64,000 nt of DNA from Dehalococcoidia bacterium (GTDB taxonomy: Bacteria; Chloroflexota; Dehalococcoidia; Plut-88900), in assembly GCA_965197585.1 (NCBI GenBank), contig OZ240215.1, positions 480,001 through 544,000 of the forward strand, given 5' to 3'. Below are positions 5,906 through 16,799 of the stretch, in pieces. Within the stretch, counting starts at the first letter, position 1. Each line of letters opens with the position of its first letter. A program made the position numbers and the translations under genes. The notes beneath the pieces are model-generated. The model ran no database searches and was not told where the DNA came from. It saw only the letters and a list, made by a program, of their open reading frames with translations.

Positions 5906-8350
5906 CGCCGAACCCTTCTCCCTGGAGCTGGCCGGGGACATGGACGGCGTGACGCTGATGGCCCGCTGCCTCGACGACCAGGTGGTGCGCGGCCAGCTCT
6001 CCGCCCACTACCCCCAGGCCCGCATCCGGAAGGTGGACCCCGACGCCGATCCCCTGCGCATGAGCGAGGGCGAGCAGGCGTGGAGCATCACCCTGCGGGC
6101 AGACTGTCCCGAATACGTCCCCCTGCGCACCTTCAGGGACGACGACCTGCTCGACCCCGGCTCCGACCCTCTCATCGCCCTCATGGGCGCCCTCTCGGCC
6201 CTGAACGAGGGGGAGCGCGTCGTGGCCCGGCTGATGCTGCGCTCCCTCGGTCCCGACTGGTCGCAGCACCACATGGACAAGGCCCACAAGCGGCCCGGCA
6301 TGGAGCCGCGAGAGCCCGCCTACACCTACCAGACCAAGCGCCTCCAGATGGACGGCATCACAATGGCCGTCCTCGGCCTGGGCGCCCTTGCGGCCCTGAA
6401 GGGCTACCTGTGGGTGCAGGACGGGGAGATCTGGAAGGCCGCCCTCCTGGGAACGGTCACGGCCCTGGGGCTGGCCGCAGGCGGATGGGCGGGCACCGCT
6501 GGAAGAAGGCCCGGTCCCGCGTCGAGGACCCCCTGCTCATCAGGGAGAAGGTGTCCCGCATCGCCTTCGACGCGGAGATACAGGTCACGGCGGTCCTGCC
6601 CGCCGACACGGGGCGGCAGCGGGCCGGGGAGCTCCTCGGGCCGGTGGCCGCCGCATACCGCCACTTCGACAACCCCGCAGGGGCGCGGTTCAAGGTGGAC
6701 AGGGTCCGCCCCGCCGCGCCCGACCCGGCCCTGCTCCACCCGGCAGGCCCCGGACTGCTCGGCAGGCGCAGCGTCCTGGGAGTCCGCGAGGCGGCCGCCC
6801 TCTGGCACCCGCCCGGAGCGGGCGACGAGACGCCCCTGGTGGAGCGTTCCGGCGCGAAGGGGCTCATCCCCTCGGCCAGGGGAATCAGGGGAGGCGCCCT
6901 GGTGGGAGACACCACCGCGGGCAAGCCCATGCCCGTCCACTTCCCCGAAGACCTGCTCAGGAGGCACCACCTCTACGTCGCCCGCACCCGCATGGGCAAG
7001 TCCACCCTCATGCATCACATAGCCGTCCACAAGATGCGGGAGAAGGCCGAGGGCAGGGACCACGACGCCATCGTCGTCATCGACCCGCACACCGATCTCG
7101 TCGACGGGATCCTCGAACACGTCCCCGACTCCCTCATGGACAGGGTGCGCGTCATCGACCTGTCCGACGCCTCCCGCTCCCCCGGCATCAACCTTCTCGA
7201 CACCCGCATCTTCGCCGACCGCGACCGCACCGCCGACTCGGTGGTGCGCGTCGCCAAGGGCCTGTGGGAGCAGTGGGGGCCGAGGATGCAGTCCATCCTC
7301 GAACAGACGGTCAATACCCTCCACGAGGCCAACGAGCACCCCGAGACGGACGAGAACGAGCAGCACACCATCCTGGACGGGCTGCGCCTGTTGTCCAACG
7401 ACCCGTACCGGAACGCCGTCCTGGCGAAGGTCTCCGACCCCTATCTGCTTGAGTGGTGGGCCAGGGACTTCGGCAGCTGGCACCGCCAGTACCGCGCCGA
7501 GGCCCTCGCCCCCGTCCAGACCCGCCTCTCCTACTACGCATCATCCAAGAGGGCGCGGGCCATCCTCGGCCAGCGCCGCTCCACCATCGACATTCGCGAG
7601 ACCATCCTCGACGGGGGAGTCCTGCTGGTCTCCACCTCCCAGGGGACCGTGGGCAGAGACGTGGCCGCCCTGGTGGGCGCGTCCCTCCTCAACCTCGTGG
7701 ACGCCGTGATCCGGGAGCAGGGGAGCGTGGCGCTCCGGGAGCGGCGGGGGGCGCTGGTGGTCGTGGACGAGATGCAGACCATGCCCGGCGTGGACTACGA
7801 GTCCATGCTCAGCGAGCTGGGCAAGTTCGGCGCCTCCTTCATCCTCGCCACCCAGAGCCTCGCCAAGCTGGACGACCTCTCCCGAACCATGCGCGACACC
7901 CTGCTCGCCAACGTCGGGTGCCTGGCCGTCTTCCAGGTGGCCGGCTCCGACGCCCGCCACCTGGTCTGGGAGCTGGGGAAGGACCGGGTGACCGAGGAGG
8001 ACATCGTTTCCCTGCCCGTCCACCACTGCTACGTCCGCGCCACGGTCGGCACGGAGCGGATGGACTCCTTCTCGATGGAGGTGAGGAAGCCGGAGACGGG
8101 AGACCGGGACGGGGCGGACCGCATCCGCAAGGCCAGCTCCGTCTACACCGTCTCGGCCCAGCAGCTCGCCTACGCCGAGACCCAGGGCCACGGCAAGGTG
8201 GAGGAGTTCCGCAGGGGAGTCGAGACCCTGAAAGAGAGCGGCCCGCAGACAGAGGAGAAGAAGACTCCCCACGGCCCCGAGCGGTGGAAGCGGACCAGCA
8301 GGCGCAAGGCGCAGAGGAAGGAGCGTCCGGATGAAGATCAACGCCAGTGA
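5905..8350 (+). pseudogene. TraD/TrwB/VirD4-like type IV coupling protein ATPase; frameshifted at ~6492 and probably 5'-truncated
   Basis: The N-part in frame 5688 (EPFSLELAG...two TM helices...GGWA) continues in frame 6080 (HRWKKARS...). Walker A variant ARTRMGKST, IVVIDPH, Walker B LVVVDEMQ and ILATQS are present. Confidence 0.8.
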
Positions 8351-9962
8351 ACGGGAGACGCTCAGCGTCATCGCGTCGTGCCCCTTCGCCGACCGGCTGG
8401 AGCTGGCCGCCATGTCCGGCGCGTCGAGGAGCGCGGTCTACGAGGCGGTCGGCAGGCTGGAGGACGCGGGCCTCGTCGCCCACGTGCCCCACGCGGCGGA
8501 CCTGATACCCCCGACCCGCCGCTACCGCCTCACCGCCGGGGGCCTGGGCGCACTGGCCGAGGCCGAGGGCGCCAGCATCGACGACCTGCTGCGCTCTCGC
8601 CCCGTCTCCGTCCAGTGGCTGCGCGTCCTGATGGACCGGCTGGACGCCCTGGCCGTCATATACCGCCTGGCATCGACCGTGACCGGCGTCGCCCACCCGG
8701 TCGGCCTCCGCCTGTACCGGGCCGGTCCCCTCGACGCCGCCTTGACCCTCCCCGGAGAGCGGACCGTGGGCATCGCCAGGCAGGGACACGCCGCCGACAG
8801 GACGGGCTTCTCGCGGCGGCTCTGGAAGCTGCGGGACGGGCCGCGCCCCGGAACGGTCCTCGTCCTGGTAGCCGACGAGGTGCGGCTGAGGCACGCCCGC
8901 AGGATGCTGCCCCGCACCGTGGAGGCGCTGCTGGCCCTGGAACGGGACGCGGCCCTCGCCGGACCCGAGGACGAGGTGTGGCGTCCCGCCGCCTCCGGTC
9001 CCCCCGCGAACCTGCGGAACGCCCTGGGGCAGCTGGCTCCCGGGGGAGAGTTGCTCGTGGAGGCCGATCCCTCGCAGGCGGACCTGCCCGGCAACGGCGC
9101 CCCGGACGCAGACCGCGCCCTGCCCGTCCTTCTCAAACCCGCCGAAAAACGCGCCCTCGACCTCATCTACGACTGGCCCTGGCCGCTCCGCACCGAGCTG
9201 GCGAGCCTGATGGCCGTCTCCGACCGCCGAGCGTCCCAGCTGGTCAACCCCCTGGAAGGGTTCGGCCTCGTGACCCGGCCCATCGACGGCAGCGGACGAC
9301 TGGCCCTCACCGAACGGGGGATCGCGCTCCTGGCCCGAAGGGACCGCACCTCCGTCGCCGTCGCGCGCAAACGGTGGAGCGTCACCCCCGTGGACTACGA
9401 GGCCCCGCTGGAGTGGCGCAACGTGACAGGCGGTCGGAGCCGCCAGCTGCTCAGGAACATCGAGCACACCGGGGCCGTCCACGCCTTCGTCGCAGCCCTG
9501 GCAAGGCAGGCCCTCGCCCTGGGGTGGGAGCTGGCCCAGATCGACCCGCCCATGAGGGCATCGAGGCACTTCAGGCACGAGGGACGGAACCGATCGGTCA
9601 ACCCCGACGCCTTCGGCGTCCTGAAGAGAGGCCCCGCAGCCTCGCCCTTCTTCCTTGAGTGGGAGAGGCGAGCGGTGCGCCCCTCGACGATGGCGACGCG
9701 GATCGCACCCTATCTGCGCTACTACTCAACTCACAGTCCCATCGACGACCACGGCGCCAGGCCCTCCGTCCTGATCGTCTTCGACGACGACATCGCCGCC
9801 ACCAACTTCCTGCGAGTGGCGGGGGACGAGATGGACCGCGCCGGGGTCAGCGTGCCCCTGTGGGTCTCCCACAGCGCGGTCATCGACGCGCTGGGCCCGC
9901 TGGGAAGGGCGTGGAGGACTCCCGGCGACTGGGAGCCCGCACACGTCCTGCTGGCCCGCTGA
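8331..9962 (+). CDS. Replication-relaxation (Replic_Relax) family protein with winged-HTH and PD-(D/E)xK-like core
   Basis: EHTGAVHAF, VNPDAFG, FFLEWER and IAPYLRYY motifs. It overlaps the end of the coupling-protein gene, the usual pairing for this family. Confidence 0.75.
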   Translation: MKINASERETLSVIASCPFADRLELAAMSGASRSAVYEAVGRLEDAGLVAHVPHAADLIPPTRRYRLTAGGLGALAEAEGASIDDLLRSRPVSVQWLRVLMDRLDALAVIYRLASTVTGVAHPVGLRLYRAGPLDAALTLPGERTVGIARQGHAADRTGFSRRLWKLRDGPRPGTVLVLVADEVRLRHARRMLPRTVEALLALERDAALAGPEDEVWRPAASGPPANLRNALGQLAPGGELLVEADPSQADLPGNGAPDADRALPVLLKPAEKRALDLIYDWPWPLRTELASLMAVSDRRASQLVNPLEGFGLVTRPIDGSGRLALTERGIALLARRDRTSVAVARKRWSVTPVDYEAPLEWRNVTGGRSRQLLRNIEHTGAVHAFVAALARQALALGWELAQIDPPMRASRHFRHEGRNRSVNPDAFGVLKRGPAASPFFLEWERRAVRPSTMATRIAPYLRYYSTHSPIDDHGARPSVLIVFDDDIAATNFLRVAGDEMDRAGVSVPLWVSHSAVIDALGPLGRAWRTPGDWEPAHVLLAR

Positions 9963-10667: not shown

Positions 10668-10970
10668 ATGCAGTGCCAGAGCACGGACCACATGTGCGTC
10701 CGCCGCGATGCCTACCCCGACGACTTCCCCCAGGCCCTGGAGCGCTTCAAGGAGGCATCAGGAAAGACCTGGGACGAGATCGCCTGGCTGCTGGGAACGA
10801 CGACCGCCACGCTGTGGCGGTGGCGAAACGCGGGGATCAGGCCCAACGCCCACTATCTCCTCGCCCTACAGGACCTGGCCGAGAGTCTGGGACTGGGACA
10901 CCTGCTTCCACCCATTAGGGTCATAAAGGTGCCCGTCAGCGGTTCGGCGGAAGGCGTCCGGGCCGGATAG
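10668..10970 (+). CDS. XRE-like HTH protein (paralog 3)
   Basis: YPDDFPQALERFKEASGKTWDEIAWLLG...LWRWRNAGIRPN...LAESLGLGHL is highly similar to 4900..5163. Confidence 0.75.
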   Translation: MQCQSTDHMCVRRDAYPDDFPQALERFKEASGKTWDEIAWLLGTTTATLWRWRNAGIRPNAHYLLALQDLAESLGLGHLLPPIRVIKVPVSGSAEGVRAG

Positions 10971-11618: not shown

Positions 11619-11678
11619 AGACGAACGACAGAGGTCTGAGCAACCCACGGCTGCACGGGCTATCACCGGCATCGAGCG

Positions 11679-12616
11679 CGCAATGTTTCCGTAGAAATCC
11701 GACAGTCCATGTAAGCTCATGGACATGTCAAATCTCACACTGATAACGTTGGCCTGGGAGTTGTACGAGCAAGGGATGACAAAAGCGCAGATAGCGCGGC
11801 AGCTGGGTAAACACCGGGAGACGGTCCATCTGTGGGTTCGGGGCATCCAAGAACAGGGGCTGCTGCCCTTCCTTGGGCGATACGAGCAAGCCAAGAAGGG
11901 GCCCAGGTTAGGGAGGCGGGTCGACCCGATGGTGAAGCGATGGATTTGGGCCATTAGGGAGCGGGAGGCGGGGTGCTGTGGACAGAAGATCGCCTACTTC
12001 CTGGAGCGGGAACACGGGGTACGCCTGTCAGTGCCTAAGATATATGAGATCCTGAAGGAGAAGTACATCATCCGTTCCAAGTGGAAGAAGAATCGGCGTA
12101 GAGGGCCGGTGCCCACGGCCAGCAGCCCTCGCCAGGTGGTACAGATGGACACGGTGATGTTTGGAGGCCTGTTTGCCTTCACCGGCATCGACATATACAC
12201 CAGGGAGGCAGACATCCTGTTAGCCCCCTCCCTGACCGCCGCTTACGGCTGTGCCTTCCTGGAACAAGCGATGACACGGCGCTTCGATGGCAGGGTGGAG
12301 TTGATCCAAACGGACGGGGGCAGTGAGTTCAAAGAGGCCTTTGCAGAGCGGGTGTTGGCCTACTGCCAACGACACCGGGTGGCTCGGCCCTACAAGAAGA
12401 ACGAGCAGGCCTACATCGAGAGCTTCAACCGGACAGTGCGGAAAGAATGTCTGGGCTGGACCCGCTACAGCGCCCAGGACCTTCCCCAGTGCCGGAGATT
12501 AGTAGAGCAGTTCCTGGATCGGTATCACTACCACCGCCCACACCTCGCCCTCGGACTAAAGCCCCCTCTCAAGAAAGGAGTCTTCCACCTGTCGGATATT
12601 TACGCATAATATTGCG
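11679..12616 (+). mobile_element. IS481/IS3-superfamily-like insertion sequence, 938 bp
   Basis: Imperfect TIRs CGCAATGTTTC-CGTAGAAATCCGACAG (11679-11705) and, reverse-complemented, CGCAATATTATGCGTAAATATCCGACAG (12589-12616). The direct repeat GAGCG flanks both ends (11674-11678, 12617-12621). Confidence 0.85.
11719..12609 (+). CDS. DDE transposase with integrase core (rve) domain
   Basis: N-terminal HTH (KAQIARQLGKHRETVHLW); catalytic motifs VQMDT, IQTDGGSEF and YIESFNRTVRKE. Confidence 0.9.
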   Translation: MDMSNLTLITLAWELYEQGMTKAQIARQLGKHRETVHLWVRGIQEQGLLPFLGRYEQAKKGPRLGRRVDPMVKRWIWAIREREAGCCGQKIAYFLEREHGVRLSVPKIYEILKEKYIIRSKWKKNRRRGPVPTASSPRQVVQMDTVMFGGLFAFTGIDIYTREADILLAPSLTAAYGCAFLEQAMTRRFDGRVELIQTDGGSEFKEAFAERVLAYCQRHRVARPYKKNEQAYIESFNRTVRKECLGWTRYSAQDLPQCRRLVEQFLDRYHYHRPHLALGLKPPLKKGVFHLSDIYA

Positions 12617-12621
12617 GAGCG

Positions 12622-12650
12622 TTGACAGCCGACACCGCTCGTGGTATGTT
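12622..12650 (+). promoter_or_regulatory. Sigma70-type promoter
   Basis: TTGACA (12622-27), 17-nt spacer, TATGTT (12645-50) with an extended -10 TG. Confidence 0.7.
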
Positions 12651-12655
12651 TTGAA

Positions 12656-12718
12656 CACCACCCCTATCTCTTCGGCGGTAGGGTCGAGACCGTCCTCCGG
12701 GACGGTCTCTGTCTTTGT
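12656..12718 (+). ncRNA. Candidate small structured RNA/leader (two UNCG hairpins, second terminator-like) upstream of the NYN gene
   Basis: CCCTATCtC-TTCG-GcGGTAGGG (12662-83), then GAGACCGTCC-TCCG-GGACGGTCTC (12686-709, perfect 10 bp), then TGTCTTTGT. Confidence 0.5.
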
Positions 12719-12731
12719 GTGGGAGTAGCGA

Positions 12732-13361
12732 TTGATCACCAACGTCTACATCGACGGCTTCACTCTCTACTACCGCGCCCTGAAGGACACGCCGTTCAGG
12801 TGGCTGGACCTACGGAGGCTGGCCGAGACGCTCCTTCCCCAGGACTCGATCAACCGGGTCTCCTACTTCACCGCGCGGCTCAACGCCCGTCCTGGGAATC
12901 CCTCTCAACGCCAGCGGCAGCAGGCGTATCTGAGAGCGCTGGCGACGCTGCCCGGCTTCGACGCGTACTACGGCGTGTTCCGGTCCGGCGTCAAGCGCCG
13001 TCCGCTAGCGGAGCCTGTGACGGGGCTGCCCCCTTACGTTCTGGTGAGGGACTCGGAGGAGAAGGGGTCGGACGTGAACCTCGCCACCCGCCTGCTGGTG
13101 GACGGGTTCAACGGGGAGTACGAGCAGGCGGTCGTCGTGTCCAACGACGCCGACTTTGCGGGAGCGATGCGGTATGTCCGGGACGACCTGGGGCTTCGGG
13201 TCACGCTAGTCAACCCGGACCCAAGGAACAGCAGTCCGAGGGAGTTGGCGGACGCCGCAACCTACGTCAAGCGCCTCTGGAAGAGCCACCTGAGACGGAG
13301 CCTGTTCCCACACACTCTTACCGACAAGATCGGAGTCATTACCAAACCAGCAGGGTGGTAA
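12732..13361 (+). CDS. NYN domain (LabA/DUF88, PIN-like) ribonuclease
   Basis: Acidic catalytic motifs VYIDGFTLYY, EEKGSDVNLA and VVSNDADF; GGAG RBS, TTG start. Confidence 0.9.
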   Translation: MITNVYIDGFTLYYRALKDTPFRWLDLRRLAETLLPQDSINRVSYFTARLNARPGNPSQRQRQQAYLRALATLPGFDAYYGVFRSGVKRRPLAEPVTGLPPYVLVRDSEEKGSDVNLATRLLVDGFNGEYEQAVVVSNDADFAGAMRYVRDDLGLRVTLVNPDPRNSSPRELADAATYVKRLWKSHLRRSLFPHTLTDKIGVITKPAGW

Positions 13362-13401
13362 CGCTACCCAATAGTTCCACTCAAGGGAGTAAGCAGAAGA
13401 C

Positions 13402-13623
13402 ATGACAAAGCGATATGGAGCACGACTCAACTTACTGGCTGATCCAGGCGATAAGAATAAGGTCGTCTATGTCGCACAGACGATCAAGAGTGGAAGCGCC
13501 CAGAACGCTCCATATAAGATCGACCATCGTGAGGACGGGAAAGCCAAGGAGACCTTCGTGCCTTACCAGGACGATGCGGCGTTGTTGCAGGCGATTCGCG
13601 GCGCTTTGTCCGGTAGCCTTTGA
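13402..13623 (+). CDS. Small hypothetical protein (73 aa)
   Basis: ORF with upstream GGGAG, co-oriented directly after NYN. Confidence 0.55.
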   Translation: MTKRYGARLNLLADPGDKNKVVYVAQTIKSGSAQNAPYKIDHREDGKAKETFVPYQDDAALLQAIRGALSGSL

Positions 13624-13764: not shown

Positions 13765-14895
13765 GTGTCAGACAGCAATAAATTTGATTTTCCAGGTACG
13801 TATCGCGCCGACTGTGGGCATACTCACGACTTTGATAAAGGAAGCCCCGTCATTGCATGTCCTGATTGTGGCGACGGCAAGGGCACAACATGGACCTGGA
13901 TTGAAGGGGACATACCACCCACCACGGTGATGCACCAAATAGGCTTGCCTAGTGGTACGTTGACTCTCATGTACATAGGTATACCGCCGGTCAGCGACGA
14001 GTCTACGGACGACATCACCCGCGCAATGCAAGTGTTCTCGCGGGATTGCCAGATGATGACGACGTGGTTCGTGGGCATCATGTCTAGCCGAAGGGCTATG
14101 CGGGAGCATCTAGAGCGCCTGGCCAGCCGTAGCGAGCCTCTTAGAATCACTACATTGCGTCCGGACGGCAGAGAGGAAGCTATTCTTGCTCAGATGCCTG
14201 CGGAGGAAGTCATCGAGTCGATCGGCGATGCTGGAGACTTCGAGCGTCTCTATGCCAACTCGTTCGTCGTCTTTATGTATCACCTGTGGGAAGAGACCGT
14301 CCGACCGAAGATCGCGACCGCCGTGGGAGTAGACCCCTGTCATGTGAAAGCTGACCTGATGGGGGAGTGGCGATTGCTCAGAAATTGGATCATTCATCGC
14401 AGCAAGGATGCCGAAGACGACTTCTTCAGGCGAGCCCAAACTTTGGTTGTCGCCTTAGGGCTTCAGCGGAGCATTTTGAGCCTGACAGCCAGTAATGTAT
14501 TGGTCTTAGTACGACACCTGAACAATATGAAGATCGAGATAAACCCACATTCATTGGAAATGGGGCTCGCCCTCGAGTCCGTCAGCCCGGAGATGATTGC
14601 CGATGTCGCGAGGACACTTGAGCCGGGAGAGGGGTCCATTGTACCCGTCGAGGCAGGAATGGCCCCATCGCCCGCGATTATCGTCTTTGATGAGGTACTG
14701 GCGATGATCCACGAAAACGATTGTAGTCAAATAAAGGTCCAACTACAGTCGTCTACAGCTTGGCGGCAGTTGAGAGTTTCAGATCGTTGGGTCGCGTCAT
14801 CAGTGGTTAAGCTCTTGGAGCAGGAAGAGCAACTCTGCCGAGAGTGTGCGTCTATTCCTCGTAGGTCCCACGACCACCACCCGCCCGGCCCCTAA
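13765..14895 (+). CDS. Hypothetical protein with N-terminal Zn-ribbon-like motifs and a HEPN-like Rx4H motif
   Basis: Strong RBS (AAGGAGG); DCGH...CPDC at the N-terminus; helix YHLWEE followed by WRLLRNWIIH; C-terminal CREC. Confidence 0.6.
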   Translation: MSDSNKFDFPGTYRADCGHTHDFDKGSPVIACPDCGDGKGTTWTWIEGDIPPTTVMHQIGLPSGTLTLMYIGIPPVSDESTDDITRAMQVFSRDCQMMTTWFVGIMSSRRAMREHLERLASRSEPLRITTLRPDGREEAILAQMPAEEVIESIGDAGDFERLYANSFVVFMYHLWEETVRPKIATAVGVDPCHVKADLMGEWRLLRNWIIHRSKDAEDDFFRRAQTLVVALGLQRSILSLTASNVLVLVRHLNNMKIEINPHSLEMGLALESVSPEMIADVARTLEPGEGSIVPVEAGMAPSPAIIVFDEVLAMIHENDCSQIKVQLQSSTAWRQLRVSDRWVASSVVKLLEQEEQLCRECASIPRRSHDHHPPGP

Positions 14896-15167: not shown

Positions 15168-16799
15168 ATGGCGAGAACCACCAAGAGGAAGACGGAGGGG
15201 AACCGGGCGGCCATCTACGCCCGCGTATCGGACAAGAGCCAGGACGGGGAGGACAAGACCTCCATCGCCGAGCAGACGGGCGACATGGAAGCCTACTGCG
15301 AGAGCAAGGGACTGACCATCACCGCGCGCTACCAGGAGGTGGGCCGGGGCTGGTCGAAGAAGCGACCCGAGTTCCAGCGGATGCTGGCCGACGCTAGACG
15401 CGGACGCTTCGATACCATCGTGTGCTGGAAGTCCGACCGCCTCAGCCGGGGCATGTACCCCGCCGCTGCCCTCATGGAGGTCGTCGAGGCCCACCAGATT
15501 CGGCTGGAAGCCGTCTTGGACGCCATCGACATGAAGACCTTCGGACTCATGGCGGCCATCGGTAAGATCGAGTTGGACAACTTCCGGGAGCGGTCCACCA
15601 TGGGCAAGCGGGGTACGGCCAAGCAAAGACGGGTGCCCACGGGAAACCTCCCCTACGGGTACCGCATTGGCGATGACGGCAGGCCGGAGGTCGTGGAAGA
15701 GCAGGCGGAGGTCGTCCGTCGCATCTTCCACATGTACGTCCATGAGGGCATGAGGGCCTACTCCATTGCCGTGCAGCTGACCGACGAAGGGGTCCCCACA
15801 CAGGCCGGCAAGCTGACGTGGCTTCAGTCCCGCGTGCACCACATCCTGGGGAACACCACCTACACGGGCACTTGGGTATACGGCAAGTACCGCCATGTCT
15901 CCACCGAGGACGGCATGAAGGTCTACGATCAGCCGAGGGACACTTGGATTGAGATCCCGATGCCGCAAGTCATCGACGACGAGACCTGGGAGCGGGCGCA
16001 GAAGTTGAAGAAGCAGCGAAGCATAAAGGCCAAGAGGAACACGAAGGTGCTCTACCTGTTGCAGCACCTGCTGAAATGCGGGGAGTGCGGCCGCAACTTC
16101 CACACGAGGGCCTCCTGGACAACCACCAGCGTTCGGAACGGCAAGGCTTACACCTACGAACTGACCACCCCCAGACGCTACTACATGTGCAACGGCACTC
16201 AGAGCCTCCGCTTGCGCTGCCGTGAGCGTCCCTACATCCGGGCGGAGCAGTTGGAGGAGCCGATATGGAGCGAGGTGAAGCGGGTGCTCCAGAACCCCGA
16301 CCTGATCGTCGCCGGTATCGCCACCCTCGATTCTCAGGAGGGCGGCGGAATGGAGGAAGAGATCGCCCAGGCCGAGCGAGACCTGCGGAGCATCCAGATG
16401 GAAGAGGATCGCGCCATCAGGCTGTTCGTGTCGGGGAAGATCACCGAGGCCCAACTCGACCTCCAGCGCAGGTTCATCACCGAGCGGCTTGAGAGCGCTA
16501 GGGCGAAGCTGGACGATTACCGGGCTCGTGAGGCGAGCGGAACCGAAAAGCGGCGACTGATGGAGGAGGTCCTAGCCTGGGCAAAAGAGTTCGGCCAGGG
16601 CTTGGACGAGTTGACCTCCGAGGAGCGCCACGATTATCTCCAGAAGCTCGTGGAACAGGTCATCATCGACAGGGACAACAACGTGGACATCACGCTGGCT
16701 ATACCCATCGACGATGACTCCTCAGACCCTGATTCTCCTGACCCTGAGTCCCCTCAGCCTGAGTGCGTGTCAATTGGATCACAAGAATCTTCACGCTGA
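15168..16799 (+). CDS. Large serine recombinase (integrase)
   Basis: AAIYARVS catalytic Ser, KRPEFQRML, KSDRLSR; recombinase domain (PYGY); Zn ribbon LLKCGECG...YYMC; coiled coil. Confidence 0.95.
   Translation: MARTTKRKTEGNRAAIYARVSDKSQDGEDKTSIAEQTGDMEAYCESKGLTITARYQEVGRGWSKKRPEFQRMLADARRGRFDTIVCWKSDRLSRGMYPAAALMEVVEAHQIRLEAVLDAIDMKTFGLMAAIGKIELDNFRERSTMGKRGTAKQRRVPTGNLPYGYRIGDDGRPEVVEEQAEVVRRIFHMYVHEGMRAYSIAVQLTDEGVPTQAGKLTWLQSRVHHILGNTTYTGTWVYGKYRHVSTEDGMKVYDQPRDTWIEIPMPQVIDDETWERAQKLKKQRSIKAKRNTKVLYLLQHLLKCGECGRNFHTRASWTTTSVRNGKAYTYELTTPRRYYMCNGTQSLRLRCRERPYIRAEQLEEPIWSEVKRVLQNPDLIVAGIATLDSQEGGGMEEEIAQAERDLRSIQMEEDRAIRLFVSGKITEAQLDLQRRFITERLESARAKLDDYRAREASGTEKRRLMEEVLAWAKEFGQGLDELTSEERHDYLQKLVEQVIIDRDNNVDITLAIPIDDDSSDPDSPDPESPQPECVSIGSQESSR

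Follow-up and report, generated by a model that had tools for sequence, protein, structure and literature searches.

The locus lies in a stretch of 64,000 nucleotides from the genome of a Dehalococcoidia bacterium (contig OZ240215.1), referred to here as the window. An insertion sequence (IS), a promoter, a small RNA gene with two hairpins and a gene for an NYN-domain ribonuclease follow one another on the forward strand:

11679..12616, + strand: insertion sequence of 938 bp (context), with an rve-type transposase ORF at 11719-12609 that matches Pfam rve and rve_3
12622..12650, + strand: sigma-70-type promoter of the small RNA, with −35 TTGACA at 12622-12627, a 17-nt spacer and −10 TATGTT at 12645-12650
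about 12657..12719, + strand: small RNA gene of ~60-63 nt, with a predicted start at A12657, 7 nt past the −10, and a predicted end in the T-rich tail
12662..12683, + strand: hairpin 1, a 9-position stem of 8 pairs and one U-C mismatch with a conserved outer CCC/GGG and a UUCG tetraloop at 12671-12674 (cUUCGg)
12686..12719, + strand: hairpin 2 and tail, terminator-like, with a perfect 10-bp stem at 12686-12709, a UCCG loop and a T-rich tail at 12710-12719
12721..12734, + strand: NYN translation signals, with the RBS GGGAG at 12721-12725, an in-frame TAG at 12726-12728 and the TTG start at 12732-12734
12732..13361, + strand: NYN-domain ribonuclease gene of 209 aa, PADLOC HEC-09 family (Pfam PF01936, PADLOC HEC-09 and AlphaFold2)

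The promoter, which the earlier note on this DNA called near-consensus, matches the consensus at 10 of 12 positions and has an extended −10 element (TG at 12642-12643; TGgTATGTT); a promoter scan of 3.5 kb found two promoter-like sites, with 1.1 expected. The covariance model R1 has a single match in the window, at 12655-12718 (75.8 bits, E = 2.9e-22), and 13 nt separate the 3′ end of the small RNA from the TTG start codon. The IS is bounded by a 5-bp target duplication (GAGCG at 11674-11678 and 12617-12621), its insertion point lies 5 bp 5′ of the RNA promoter, and two further copies are present elsewhere in the genome. It was rejected as the origin of the promoter or terminator because it stops at 12616, before the −35 element. 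Loci L011-L014 represent the site without the IS, and IS-free relatives keep the same promoter and RNA.

The NYN protein has one Pfam match, to NYN (PF01936; 40.4 bits with a cut-off of 24.2, E = 5.2e-10, residues 4-178), and no family in NCBIfam. The PADLOC profile HEC-09 covers it over residues 5-209 (profile positions 6-202 of 203, E = 1.9e-34). Its AlphaFold2 model (pLDDT 94.8) adopts the NYN fold of LabA-like and MARF1 domains, the best Foldseek matches being PDB entry 2qip (E = 9.1e-9) and the NYN domains of mouse MARF1 (6.4e-6) and human MARF1 (9.9e-6). This similarity came from the structure search; by sequence, the best PDB match was again 2qip, at only E = 0.011. No variation occurs at D8, E109, E110, D114, D139 and D141 among 37 sequences that reach down to 36% identity, and these residues form a candidate metal-binding site with a putative match to the catalytic aspartates of MARF1. 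A nuclease starting at TTG with its acidic residues intact, as first described from the sequence, is therefore what lies here. Weak start codons recur at the aligned start position of 82 rows (TTG 30, GTG 10 and CTG 2, compared with ATG 20). Relatives of the query in the protein collection number 6228 at E up to 0.001, other NYN subfamilies included.

Taken alone, the fold of the window copy of the RNA is modestly above chance (z = −2.3; 5 of 200 shuffles fold equally well). It is more than chance because it is conserved and covarying in 66 aligned copies and stands beside 79 of 80 homologous genes. In a sequence-only MAFFT alignment of these 66 copies, 88.9% of cells are paired, compared with 78.4% in shuffles, and 16 of the 19 pairs change on both sides (148 cells, compared with at most 58 after sliding of the partners). 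In a second, independent set of 61 copies, whose alignment was fitted to the model, 93.3% of cells are paired and 17 of 19 pairs change on both sides. Two-sided changes affect 7 of 9 pairs of hairpin 1 in the MAFFT alignment and 8 of 9 in the second set, and 9 of 10 pairs of hairpin 2 in both sets. G-U pairs are frequent, which speaks for an RNA, transcribed from the motif strand. RNAalifold on the MAFFT alignment returned hairpin 2 with a 3-bp extension only; hairpin 1 was entered by hand, because indels shift its register. The conserved, covarying structure that the earlier note had proposed to look for near NYN homologues is present in both helices (66 copies; 79 of 80 loci), and on the evidence of these alignments the small RNA is a conserved RNA family and no chance hairpin.

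Conservation is uneven along the RNA. A C-rich, unpaired 5′ tail (A, C/U, C, C/A, C) is conserved, with A at model position 3 in 128 of 154 unique copies. The UUCG loop letters of hairpin 1 are at least 90% conserved, and sequence identity in both helices is high across phyla, beyond what a plain terminator needs. Both stems, loops and the U-rich tail described for the window are found in place; the UNCG loop of hairpin 2 does not extend to relatives, which carry GAAA, GCAA, UUAG and others. No match to Rfam 15 was found at E up to 1 for the window region or for 12 diverse loci, and no tandem repeats were found in 12500-13500. Multi-copy loci hold arrays of two to three whole RNA genes at spacings of 83-240 nt, most of them preceded by promoter-like sites.

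Of 80 species loci, whose NYN proteins range from 93% to 44% identity, 79 have the RNA no more than 400 nt from the gene; the sole miss, L052, is a sequence that ends 23 nt past the gene. By record titles, the hosts belong to Chloroflexota, Actinomycetota, Acidobacteriota, Verrucomicrobia, Saccharibacteria, Gemmatimonas, Armatimonadota, Latescibacterota, Desulfatiglandaceae and the alpha- and beta-proteobacteria. RNA and NYN gene hence form one conserved unit, as had been supposed. Among 151 genomes of the class, the RNA accompanies 34 of 37 NYN loci; of the three loci without it, one is a C-terminal fragment and the other two are genes with 34% and 28% identity. Conversely, 27 of the 61 RNA copies in these genomes have no NYN gene within 450 nt, or only a remnant of one; being drawn from related genomes, these locus and copy counts are not independent. 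Several RNA copies, including four of the 27, precede decayed NYN stubs, and one genus relative has the RNA alone where this genome has RNA and NYN gene. A pattern scan of viral contigs for RNA-only copies returned three loci, few and near contig ends. The RNA outnumbers and outlives the NYN gene, as an antitoxin would. The three paralogous modules of this genome carry clearly different RNA variants, a pattern that insulated cognate pairs may be expected to produce.

One reading is that the RNA-like element has no functional tie to the nuclease and only travels with the NYN gene as part of a mobile cassette, for instance as its portable promoter-terminator or recombination site. The pair does occur in very different neighbourhoods and on mobile elements. 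It is present on E. coli plasmids of 3.4-4.6 kb, among them one of 3461 bp from river water (L148), and a Leptospira plasmid, in a mycobacterial prophage and on prophage or viral contigs (31 of 38 loci with at least 35% identity). In the window, a profile search identified its neighbours as the IS, two ORFs without a family and a serine recombinase; the suggested placement on an island is borne out there, and plasmids and prophages join the island as carriers. Varied neighbourhoods were also seen when 114 of 132 flanking ORFs of 57 other loci were scanned: the flanks are mostly housekeeping genes, about a dozen of the 114 being mobile or defence-like, which gives no clear signal of a defence-island setting. 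One RNA copy stands before a DUF3800 gene instead of an NYN gene (a relationship between NYN and DUF3800 was rejected, with an hhalign probability of 0.2%). Against an independent cassette, neither a conserved third gene nor a flanking repeat was seen in the flanks of the 57 loci, and covariation with G-U pairs marks an RNA. Moreover, the RNA keeps to one NYN subfamily, and the association, which holds from 93% protein identity downwards, ends at about 35-38% (2 of 35 distant viral NYN loci have the RNA). We consider a mere travelling companion very improbable.

The order of promoter, RNA, terminator and RNase gene noted at first sight recurs beyond the window, in 70 of the 80 loci, in which the RNA is upstream of the gene on the same strand. 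The remaining arrangements are divergent (four loci), convergent only (three) and convergent plus upstream (one). In same-strand loci, 5-40 nt separate the motif end from the start codon. A promoter match of at least 8 of 12 positions, ending 3-9 nt before the motif, precedes 118 of 154 unique RNA copies, compared with 4.8% of shuffled upstream sequences, and promoter-like sites precede the RNA in same-strand, divergent and convergent arrangements alike. The RNA thus has its own promoter and is strictly linked to this NYN subfamily, in any orientation. Contigs from four RNA libraries of three studies (at least 85% likeness) cover relatives of the RNA and gene, with ends and strand not shown and DNA carry-over possible.

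These arrangements bear on whether the RNA is only a cis-acting 5′ leader or attenuator, whose terminator throttles NYN transcription and which the nuclease perhaps cuts or binds, the other copies being debris. Autoregulatory 5′ leaders precede the ribonuclease genes rne and rnc of E. coli, and here too a structured RNA lies directly before an RNase gene in most loci. The 70 upstream same-strand loci, with the RBS right behind the tail, fit such a leader, as do RNA-library contigs that bridge RNA and gene, one piece spanning 12656-12781, contigs being unable to fix transcript ends or exclude a DNA origin. The present RNA differs from the rne and rnc leaders in having its own terminator, in occurring on the opposite strand or downstream and in persisting without the gene. 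Four of the 80 loci are divergent and four convergent, with promoter-like sites; the RNA is convergent to the NYN gene in the mycobacterial prophage and flanks the gene on either side, in opposite orientation, at the third paralog of this genome (L009). The 27 of 61 copies without a gene cannot serve as leaders of one, and some copies stand in promoter-bearing arrays. Judged by its arrangements, the small RNA is not merely a 5′ leader, and a purely cis-acting role is improbable. The alternative of antitoxin or autoregulatory substrate offered by the earlier note is accordingly narrowed: the antitoxin half gains from an RNA that outnumbers and outlives the gene, and the substrate or leader half is weakened by the eight divergent or convergent loci among 80, the prophage and the third paralog.

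An RNA acting in trans could also be a type I-like antisense regulator that blocks the start region of the NYN mRNA, since its C-rich 5′ tail could in principle meet the G-rich RBS. Predicted cognate duplexes (−28.60 kcal/mol) are hardly distinguishable from non-cognate ones (−28.39 kcal/mol; median rank 28 of 63) or from those of shuffled RNAs (−27.26 kcal/mol), and the NYN protein, unlike type I toxins, is no small membrane peptide. Antisense control is the most remote of the readings considered.

Type III toxin-antitoxin systems (ToxIN, CptIN and TenpIN) consist of an RNA gene, a terminator and an endoribonuclease gene that share a single promoter, an arrangement that yields more RNA than protein, and are carried on plasmids and phage-related elements. 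Their antitoxins are arrays of short repeats that are processed by the toxin. The present module shares the order of RNA, terminator and nuclease, in the window and in 70 of 80 loci, and the numerical excess of the RNA over the gene. It differs in the fold of the nuclease, which is NYN (PIN-like) and not ToxN-type (Pfam, Foldseek), in an RNA that is a single 62-nt unit of two hairpins with its own start and terminator, and in that the RNA may occupy the other strand or follow the gene. Membership in the ToxIN, CptIN or TenpIN families was rejected, given the different toxin fold and the lack of a repeat array, and the absent repeats also count against a type III-like reading.

The reading that we put at about an even chance is nonetheless that the pair is a type III-like module of RNA antitoxin and RNase toxin, whose toxin has a new fold and whose RNA is without repeats. 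Such a module would pair an NYN-family endoribonuclease with a small RNA of ~62 nt dedicated to it. A strong promoter of its own precedes the RNA, which is composed of a short C-rich single strand, a UUCG-capped hairpin and a terminator-like hairpin. In the commonest layout the RBS directly follows the T-rich tail and leaves no space for an NYN promoter, so that the nuclease would be made only by read-through of the terminator; together with the frequent weak TTG and GTG starts, this would keep the RNA always in large excess. A stop in RNA supply, through loss of the plasmid or island or through phage-induced shut-off of transcription, would free the nuclease, which would then cleave cellular or phage RNA. 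Binding, inhibition, toxicity and trigger are steps that we infer. The carriers of the pair, namely plasmids, prophages and an island, appear typical of addiction or defence genes. A weaker T-tract where read-through is needed was sought and rejected: the T-rich tail is alike in all gene arrangements, with a mean of 6.0 T per 12 nt in proximal same-strand loci and 5.25-6.45 in the others. This equality of read-through and other layouts counts against the type III-like reading.

The linkage and the asymmetry between RNA and gene would be equally expected if the RNA were an obligatory cofactor. In that case it would activate, guide or scaffold the nuclease as part of a small ribonucleoprotein enzyme, and would be no inhibitor. 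The same linkage, independent promoter, variable orientation and a gene never without its RNA would follow. The conserved unpaired 5′ tail, which by its C-rich sequence could select G-rich targets, and the helix identity across phyla above the needs of a plain terminator also point this way. A cofactor role alone does not explain the many promoter-bearing RNA copies that persist where the gene is gone or decayed, and the read-through design and weak starts resemble means of holding the amount of protein below that of the RNA. We regard an obligatory partner as rather unlikely, though the most credible of the alternatives to an antitoxin.

The protein family itself has been named before. HEC-09 is an Hma-embedded defence candidate consisting of a single protein, described as having an NYN/MARF1-like fold with conserved aspartates (Payne et al., bioRxiv 10.1101/2024.01.29.577857; PADLOC-DB PDLC04163). 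By its full-length HMM match the window protein belongs to the same family; the window copy is not within an Hma (helicase-methylase-ATPase) system. According to the main text of that preprint, the HEC-09 representative, cloned where possible with ~150 bp of upstream DNA, gave no protection in E. coli against the coliphages tested, and toxicity on induction is noted for other candidates only; the terms 'non-coding', 'ncRNA' and 'small RNA' are absent from it (10.1101/2024.01.29.577857). That HEC-09 is not noted there as toxic would be explained by an obligatory partner. It would be expected of an antitoxin as well if the cloned upstream DNA held the RNA; the reported lack of defence remains and, like the absent repeats, counts against the type III-like reading.

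A literature search found no RNA partner described for NYN, and the word 'NYN' is absent from the text of a genome-language-model preprint (10.64898/2026.09.22.753630). The earlier remark that no such system was known for this NYN subfamily thus stands for the RNA-NYN pair and falls for the protein, which already bears the name HEC-09. The closest published counterparts of the RNA are the DUF3800-I, drum and skipping-rope RNAs, which are structured, end in an intrinsic terminator, rarely form a 5′ UTR and were reported with function unknown (Weinberg et al. 2017, PMC5737381). As described there, they share with the present RNA the 3′ terminator and an association with one protein family in either orientation, a likeness of kind and not of membership. 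The present RNA differs in its NYN partner and in having no match in Rfam 15; 'NYN' does not occur in the main text of that paper.

Overall, we tentatively propose, at slightly short of even confidence, a new and widespread RNA-protein module of toxin-antitoxin or defence type, in which an NYN nuclease would be checked or programmed by its own non-repetitive 62-nt RNA, and which occurs in more than 10 phyla, on small E. coli plasmids and in prophages. The strongly covarying RNA family is an addition to those in Rfam 15, and a large NYN protein family, left without a phenotype by a published defence screen, gains a concrete and testable partner. The natural 3.4-4.6 kb E. coli plasmids that carry the pair make direct testing possible in a laboratory strain.

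To our knowledge, control of a protein toxin by an RNA antitoxin has so far been described only for ToxN-type families. If the antitoxin reading is true, its occurrence with an unrelated nuclease fold and an RNA of different architecture would mean that the RNA-antitoxin principle arose more than once, and the 'inactive' HEC-09 would have been tried by workers unaware of its RNA partner. The principle may then extend to the DUF3800, drum and skipping-rope RNAs, which suggests a reading for other published RNA motifs of unknown function that accompany one gene in either orientation.

The module in the window consists of a promoter, a small RNA of approximately 62 nt with two hairpins, and a gene encoding an NYN ribonuclease. 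Re-reading of the sequence confirmed this arrangement, with the promoter, both hairpins, the T-rich tail and the TTG-started NYN open reading frame (ORF) all located where the earlier note had placed them. The fold of the window RNA, calculated from the single sequence, is only mildly better than that of its shuffles (z = −2.3), so this copy by itself is little proof.

Features of the module and its surroundings in the window
8331–9962, 10668–10970 and 15168–16799: neighbours of the module
11679–12616: insertion sequence (IS)
11719–12609: upstream ORF, rve-type transposase
12622–12627 (+): −35 hexamer TTGACA of the RNA promoter, separated by a 17-nt spacer from an extended −10 element ending at 12650 (score 10/12)
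12657–12719 (+): small RNA, predicted ends
12662–12683 (+): hairpin 1, UUCG cap
12686–12709 (+): hairpin 2, perfect 10-bp stem, T-rich tail after it
12732 (+): TTG start of the NYN gene, preceded by GGGAG and then an in-frame stop
12732–13361 (+): NYN gene, 209-aa ORF (Pfam NYN, 40.4 bits; cut-off 24.2)
13402–13623 and 13765–14895: ORFs without a family match, between the NYN gene and the recombinase

The RNA structure is conserved and covaries upstream of NYN homologues, in line with the functional RNA proposed in the earlier note. Loci encoding NYN relatives (93% down to 44% identity) were fetched from 80 species, and the motif is visible by eye upstream of most of them. In a MAFFT alignment of 66 RNA copies, with both helices entered by hand, 88.9% of the cells are paired (78.4% in shuffles) and 16 of 19 pairs are altered on both sides (approximately 10.5 in shuffles). 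Both-sided changes occupy 148 cells, compared with at most 58 when the partners are slid, and the covariation score is 0.383, compared with at most 0.117. Sixty-one further copies, taken from other genomes, showed 93.3% pairing and 17 of 19 pairs changed, but their alignment had been fitted to the model and is biased in its favour. The parts that are kept comprise the outer CCC/GGG and the UUCG loop of hairpin 1, much of the hairpin 2 stem and a short 5′ tail. Two UNCG caps had been described from the window copy; that of hairpin 1 is conserved as UUCG, and the loop of hairpin 2 varies freely. No match in Rfam 15 was found for the RNA of the window or for that of 12 diverse loci. RNAalifold additionally indicated an elongation of hairpin 2 by 3 bp, in competition with the base of hairpin 1 (window 12681–12684 with 12710–12713; columns 30–32 with 65–67 of alignment A2), correlated as G-U/U-G versus G-C/C-G in the two main clades; this could be an alternative conformer or merely the mark of two lineages.

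The RNA has a promoter of its own and is not tied to one position relative to the gene. R1, a covariance model of the RNA, gave 106 matches over the 80 loci, 11 of which are short and fall on the reverse strand, where the palindromic hairpin 2 is matched a second time. One copy lies upstream on the same strand at 61 of the 80 loci, and two copies do so at 9; a single copy is upstream and divergent at 4, and just behind the gene and convergent at 3. One locus combines a convergent with an upstream copy, one has an upstream and a downstream copy on the same strand, and one (L052) has none, its sequence stopping 23 nt past the gene, too early for a downstream copy to be seen. The third paralogue of the window's own genome (41% identity) is flanked by two weaker opposite-strand copies, detected with filters off. 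The T-tract is alike in all layouts. A promoter match of at least 8/12 ending 3–9 nt before the motif is present at 118 of 154 unique copies, compared with 4.8% of shuffled upstream sequences, and the convergent and divergent copies displayed have promoter-like hexamers in matching orientation. A leader acting only in cis cannot account for the divergent and convergent layouts. The earlier note had taken the RNA for an antitoxin or an autoregulatory substrate of the NYN ribonuclease; a conserved RNA gene linked to NYN stands, and its reading as a pure leader of the gene is contradicted by the opposite-strand loci.

In the common layout, 5–40 nt separate the end of the motif from the start codon, which leaves room for a ribosome-binding site and none for a promoter. 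The aligned start position reads TTG in 30 of 82 rows, ATG in 20, GTG in 10 and CTG in 2. One clade (L005, a paralogue from the same genome, 1480–1640, with L046, L048, L049 and L054) has ATC there in place of ATG, GTG or TTG, and the sole canonical start in frame falls within hairpin 1.

The ends of the IS (11679 and 12616; 938 bp, with a 5-bp target duplication) were fixed using two further genomic copies, and the −35 hexamer thus lies 5 bp outside its right end. An origin of the promoter from the IS, or of the RNA as a transposase terminator, was ruled out, as the closest relatives (L011–L014) have the same promoter and RNA at a site without the IS. In two of the three genomic copies, exactly 5 bp separate the IS from a downstream TTGACA-17-TAnnnT promoter, namely the RNA promoter in the window and a TTGACA-17-TAAAAT site at L002 (approximately 1501–2440); in the third, at L003, the right end differs and no promoter of this kind follows. 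The IS may prefer to insert close to promoters, or the coincidence may be fortuitous. The neighbours of the module, which include a 543-aa protein with MarR-type HTH matches and a weak Replic_Relax match, small HTH proteins and a large serine recombinase (Resolvase, Recombinase, Zn_ribbon_recom), suggest an integrated mobile element. In the relative L011, a recombinase lies within approximately 220 nt after the NYN gene.

The NYN protein matches the PADLOC defence candidate HEC-09 (E = 1.9e-34). Its AlphaFold2 model (pLDDT 94.8) is structurally most similar to the LabA-like protein 2qip and to MARF1 NYN domains, and D8, E109, E110, D114, D139 and D141 are shared by all 37 sequences compared. 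In the parts of the HEC preprint available (Payne et al., bioRxiv 10.1101/2024.01.29.577857), HEC-09 gave no protection against the phage panel used, approximately 150 bp of upstream DNA was cloned where possible, and the main text does not feature a non-coding RNA.

Gene and RNA differ in how often each occurs alone. R1 and the NYN protein were each run against one set of 151 class genomes: R1 gave 64 copies in 36 genomes, and the protein 38 matches that represent 37 loci in 29 genomes. The RNA is beside 34 of the 37 NYN loci, once four weak cases had been searched again with filters off; of the other three, one is a C-terminal fragment and two are genes of just 34% and 28% identity. Conversely, 27 of the 61 RNA copies outside the window's own genome lack an NYN match within 450 nt, of which 4 score below 30 bits and may be false. 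Short decayed NYN starts lie downstream of the RNA at four of the 27 (L097, L102, L133 and L134), and another at L095, which was counted among the copies beside a different, LabA-like NYN gene. One genus relative retains the RNA at a site where the window's own genome has RNA and gene. That genome has two further NYN paralogues, the 54% paralogue sharing the layout with differing stem sequences, and a third RNA copy that precedes a decayed NYN stub.

A gene rarely without the RNA, and an RNA often without the gene, is the pattern expected of a toxin and its antitoxin. Were the RNA instead an obligatory cofactor or a guide of the nuclease, the first half would also be expected, and that alternative accommodates most of these observations; the orphan copies that keep their promoters are left unexplained by it. 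Regulation of the NYN mRNA by antisense pairing is not supported, cognate duplexes averaging −28.60 kcal/mol versus −28.39 kcal/mol for non-cognate ones.

Several loci have other genes beside the RNA. At L004, in the window's own genome, a copy of 73.4 bits (1499–1562) precedes a decayed NYN start and adjoins a different, LabA-like NYN gene of 170 aa on the opposite strand (747–1259), as also in genus relatives at L095 and L107. At L100 (genome G138, 2466–2798), a relA/spoT-like ORF is immediately preceded by three RNA genes spaced approximately 135 nt from one another and interspersed with TTGACA sites; another copy is found approximately 900 nt further upstream, and no NYN gene occurs within 450 nt. 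At L109, tandem copies (1354–1415 and 1501–1562) are followed after 40 nt by a DUF3800 gene (1603–2403; Pfam E = 1.2e-15) in place of the NYN gene.

Judged by record titles, many phyla are represented among the 80 loci, which include a Saccharibacteria locus (L057) that carries the motif. A plasmid collection yielded 84 records with NYN relatives, including E. coli plasmids of 3.4–4.6 kb. The RNA lies directly upstream of the NYN gene on E. coli plasmids of 3461 bp (26.5 bits) and 4599 bp (17.6 bits) and on a Leptospira plasmid (38.6 bits); in a mycobacterial prophage it is convergent with gene 6 and abuts its stop codon (62.8 bits). Among 78 viral-contig loci, the RNA accompanies 31 of 38 near-full-length NYN genes of at least 35% identity (4 of the 7 misses are at contig ends) and only 2 of 35 more distant ones, which places it with one NYN subfamily. 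Flanking genes are mostly ordinary metabolic ones, approximately 12 of 114 being mobile or defence-like. RNA-library contigs from three studies, which do not define transcript ends and may derive from DNA, cover relatives of the RNA and gene, and one bridges the two (12656–12781).

Known type III families combine a repeat-array antitoxin with a ToxN-type toxin; the present RNA has no repeat array and the candidate toxin is an NYN protein, so two of their defining features are absent. The closest published analogues in genomic logic, in the parts of Weinberg 2017 (PMC5737381) consulted, are DUF3800-I, drum and skipping-rope, terminator-ended RNAs of no assigned function, each associated with a single gene family regardless of relative orientation; eleven unrelated RNA motifs are associated there with DUF3800 genes. 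No description of an RNA partner of NYN genes was found in the literature searched. The earlier antitoxin interpretation is partly supported, and an RNA-antitoxin-like partnership with the NYN nuclease, of type III-like logic, has in our judgement an even chance of being right. The analysis establishes the anatomy of the module, its conservation, a separate RNA promoter, the genetic linkage and the imbalance between RNA and gene copies. We infer that read-through transcripts would be the only source of the nuclease, which would be weakly translated, with the RNA supplied from its strong promoter; the RNA would bind the nuclease and restrain its putative toxic activity, and loss of RNA supply would be the trigger that frees the enzyme. 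The RNA itself is a real, widespread and uncatalogued small RNA gene, genetically bound to one NYN subfamily.
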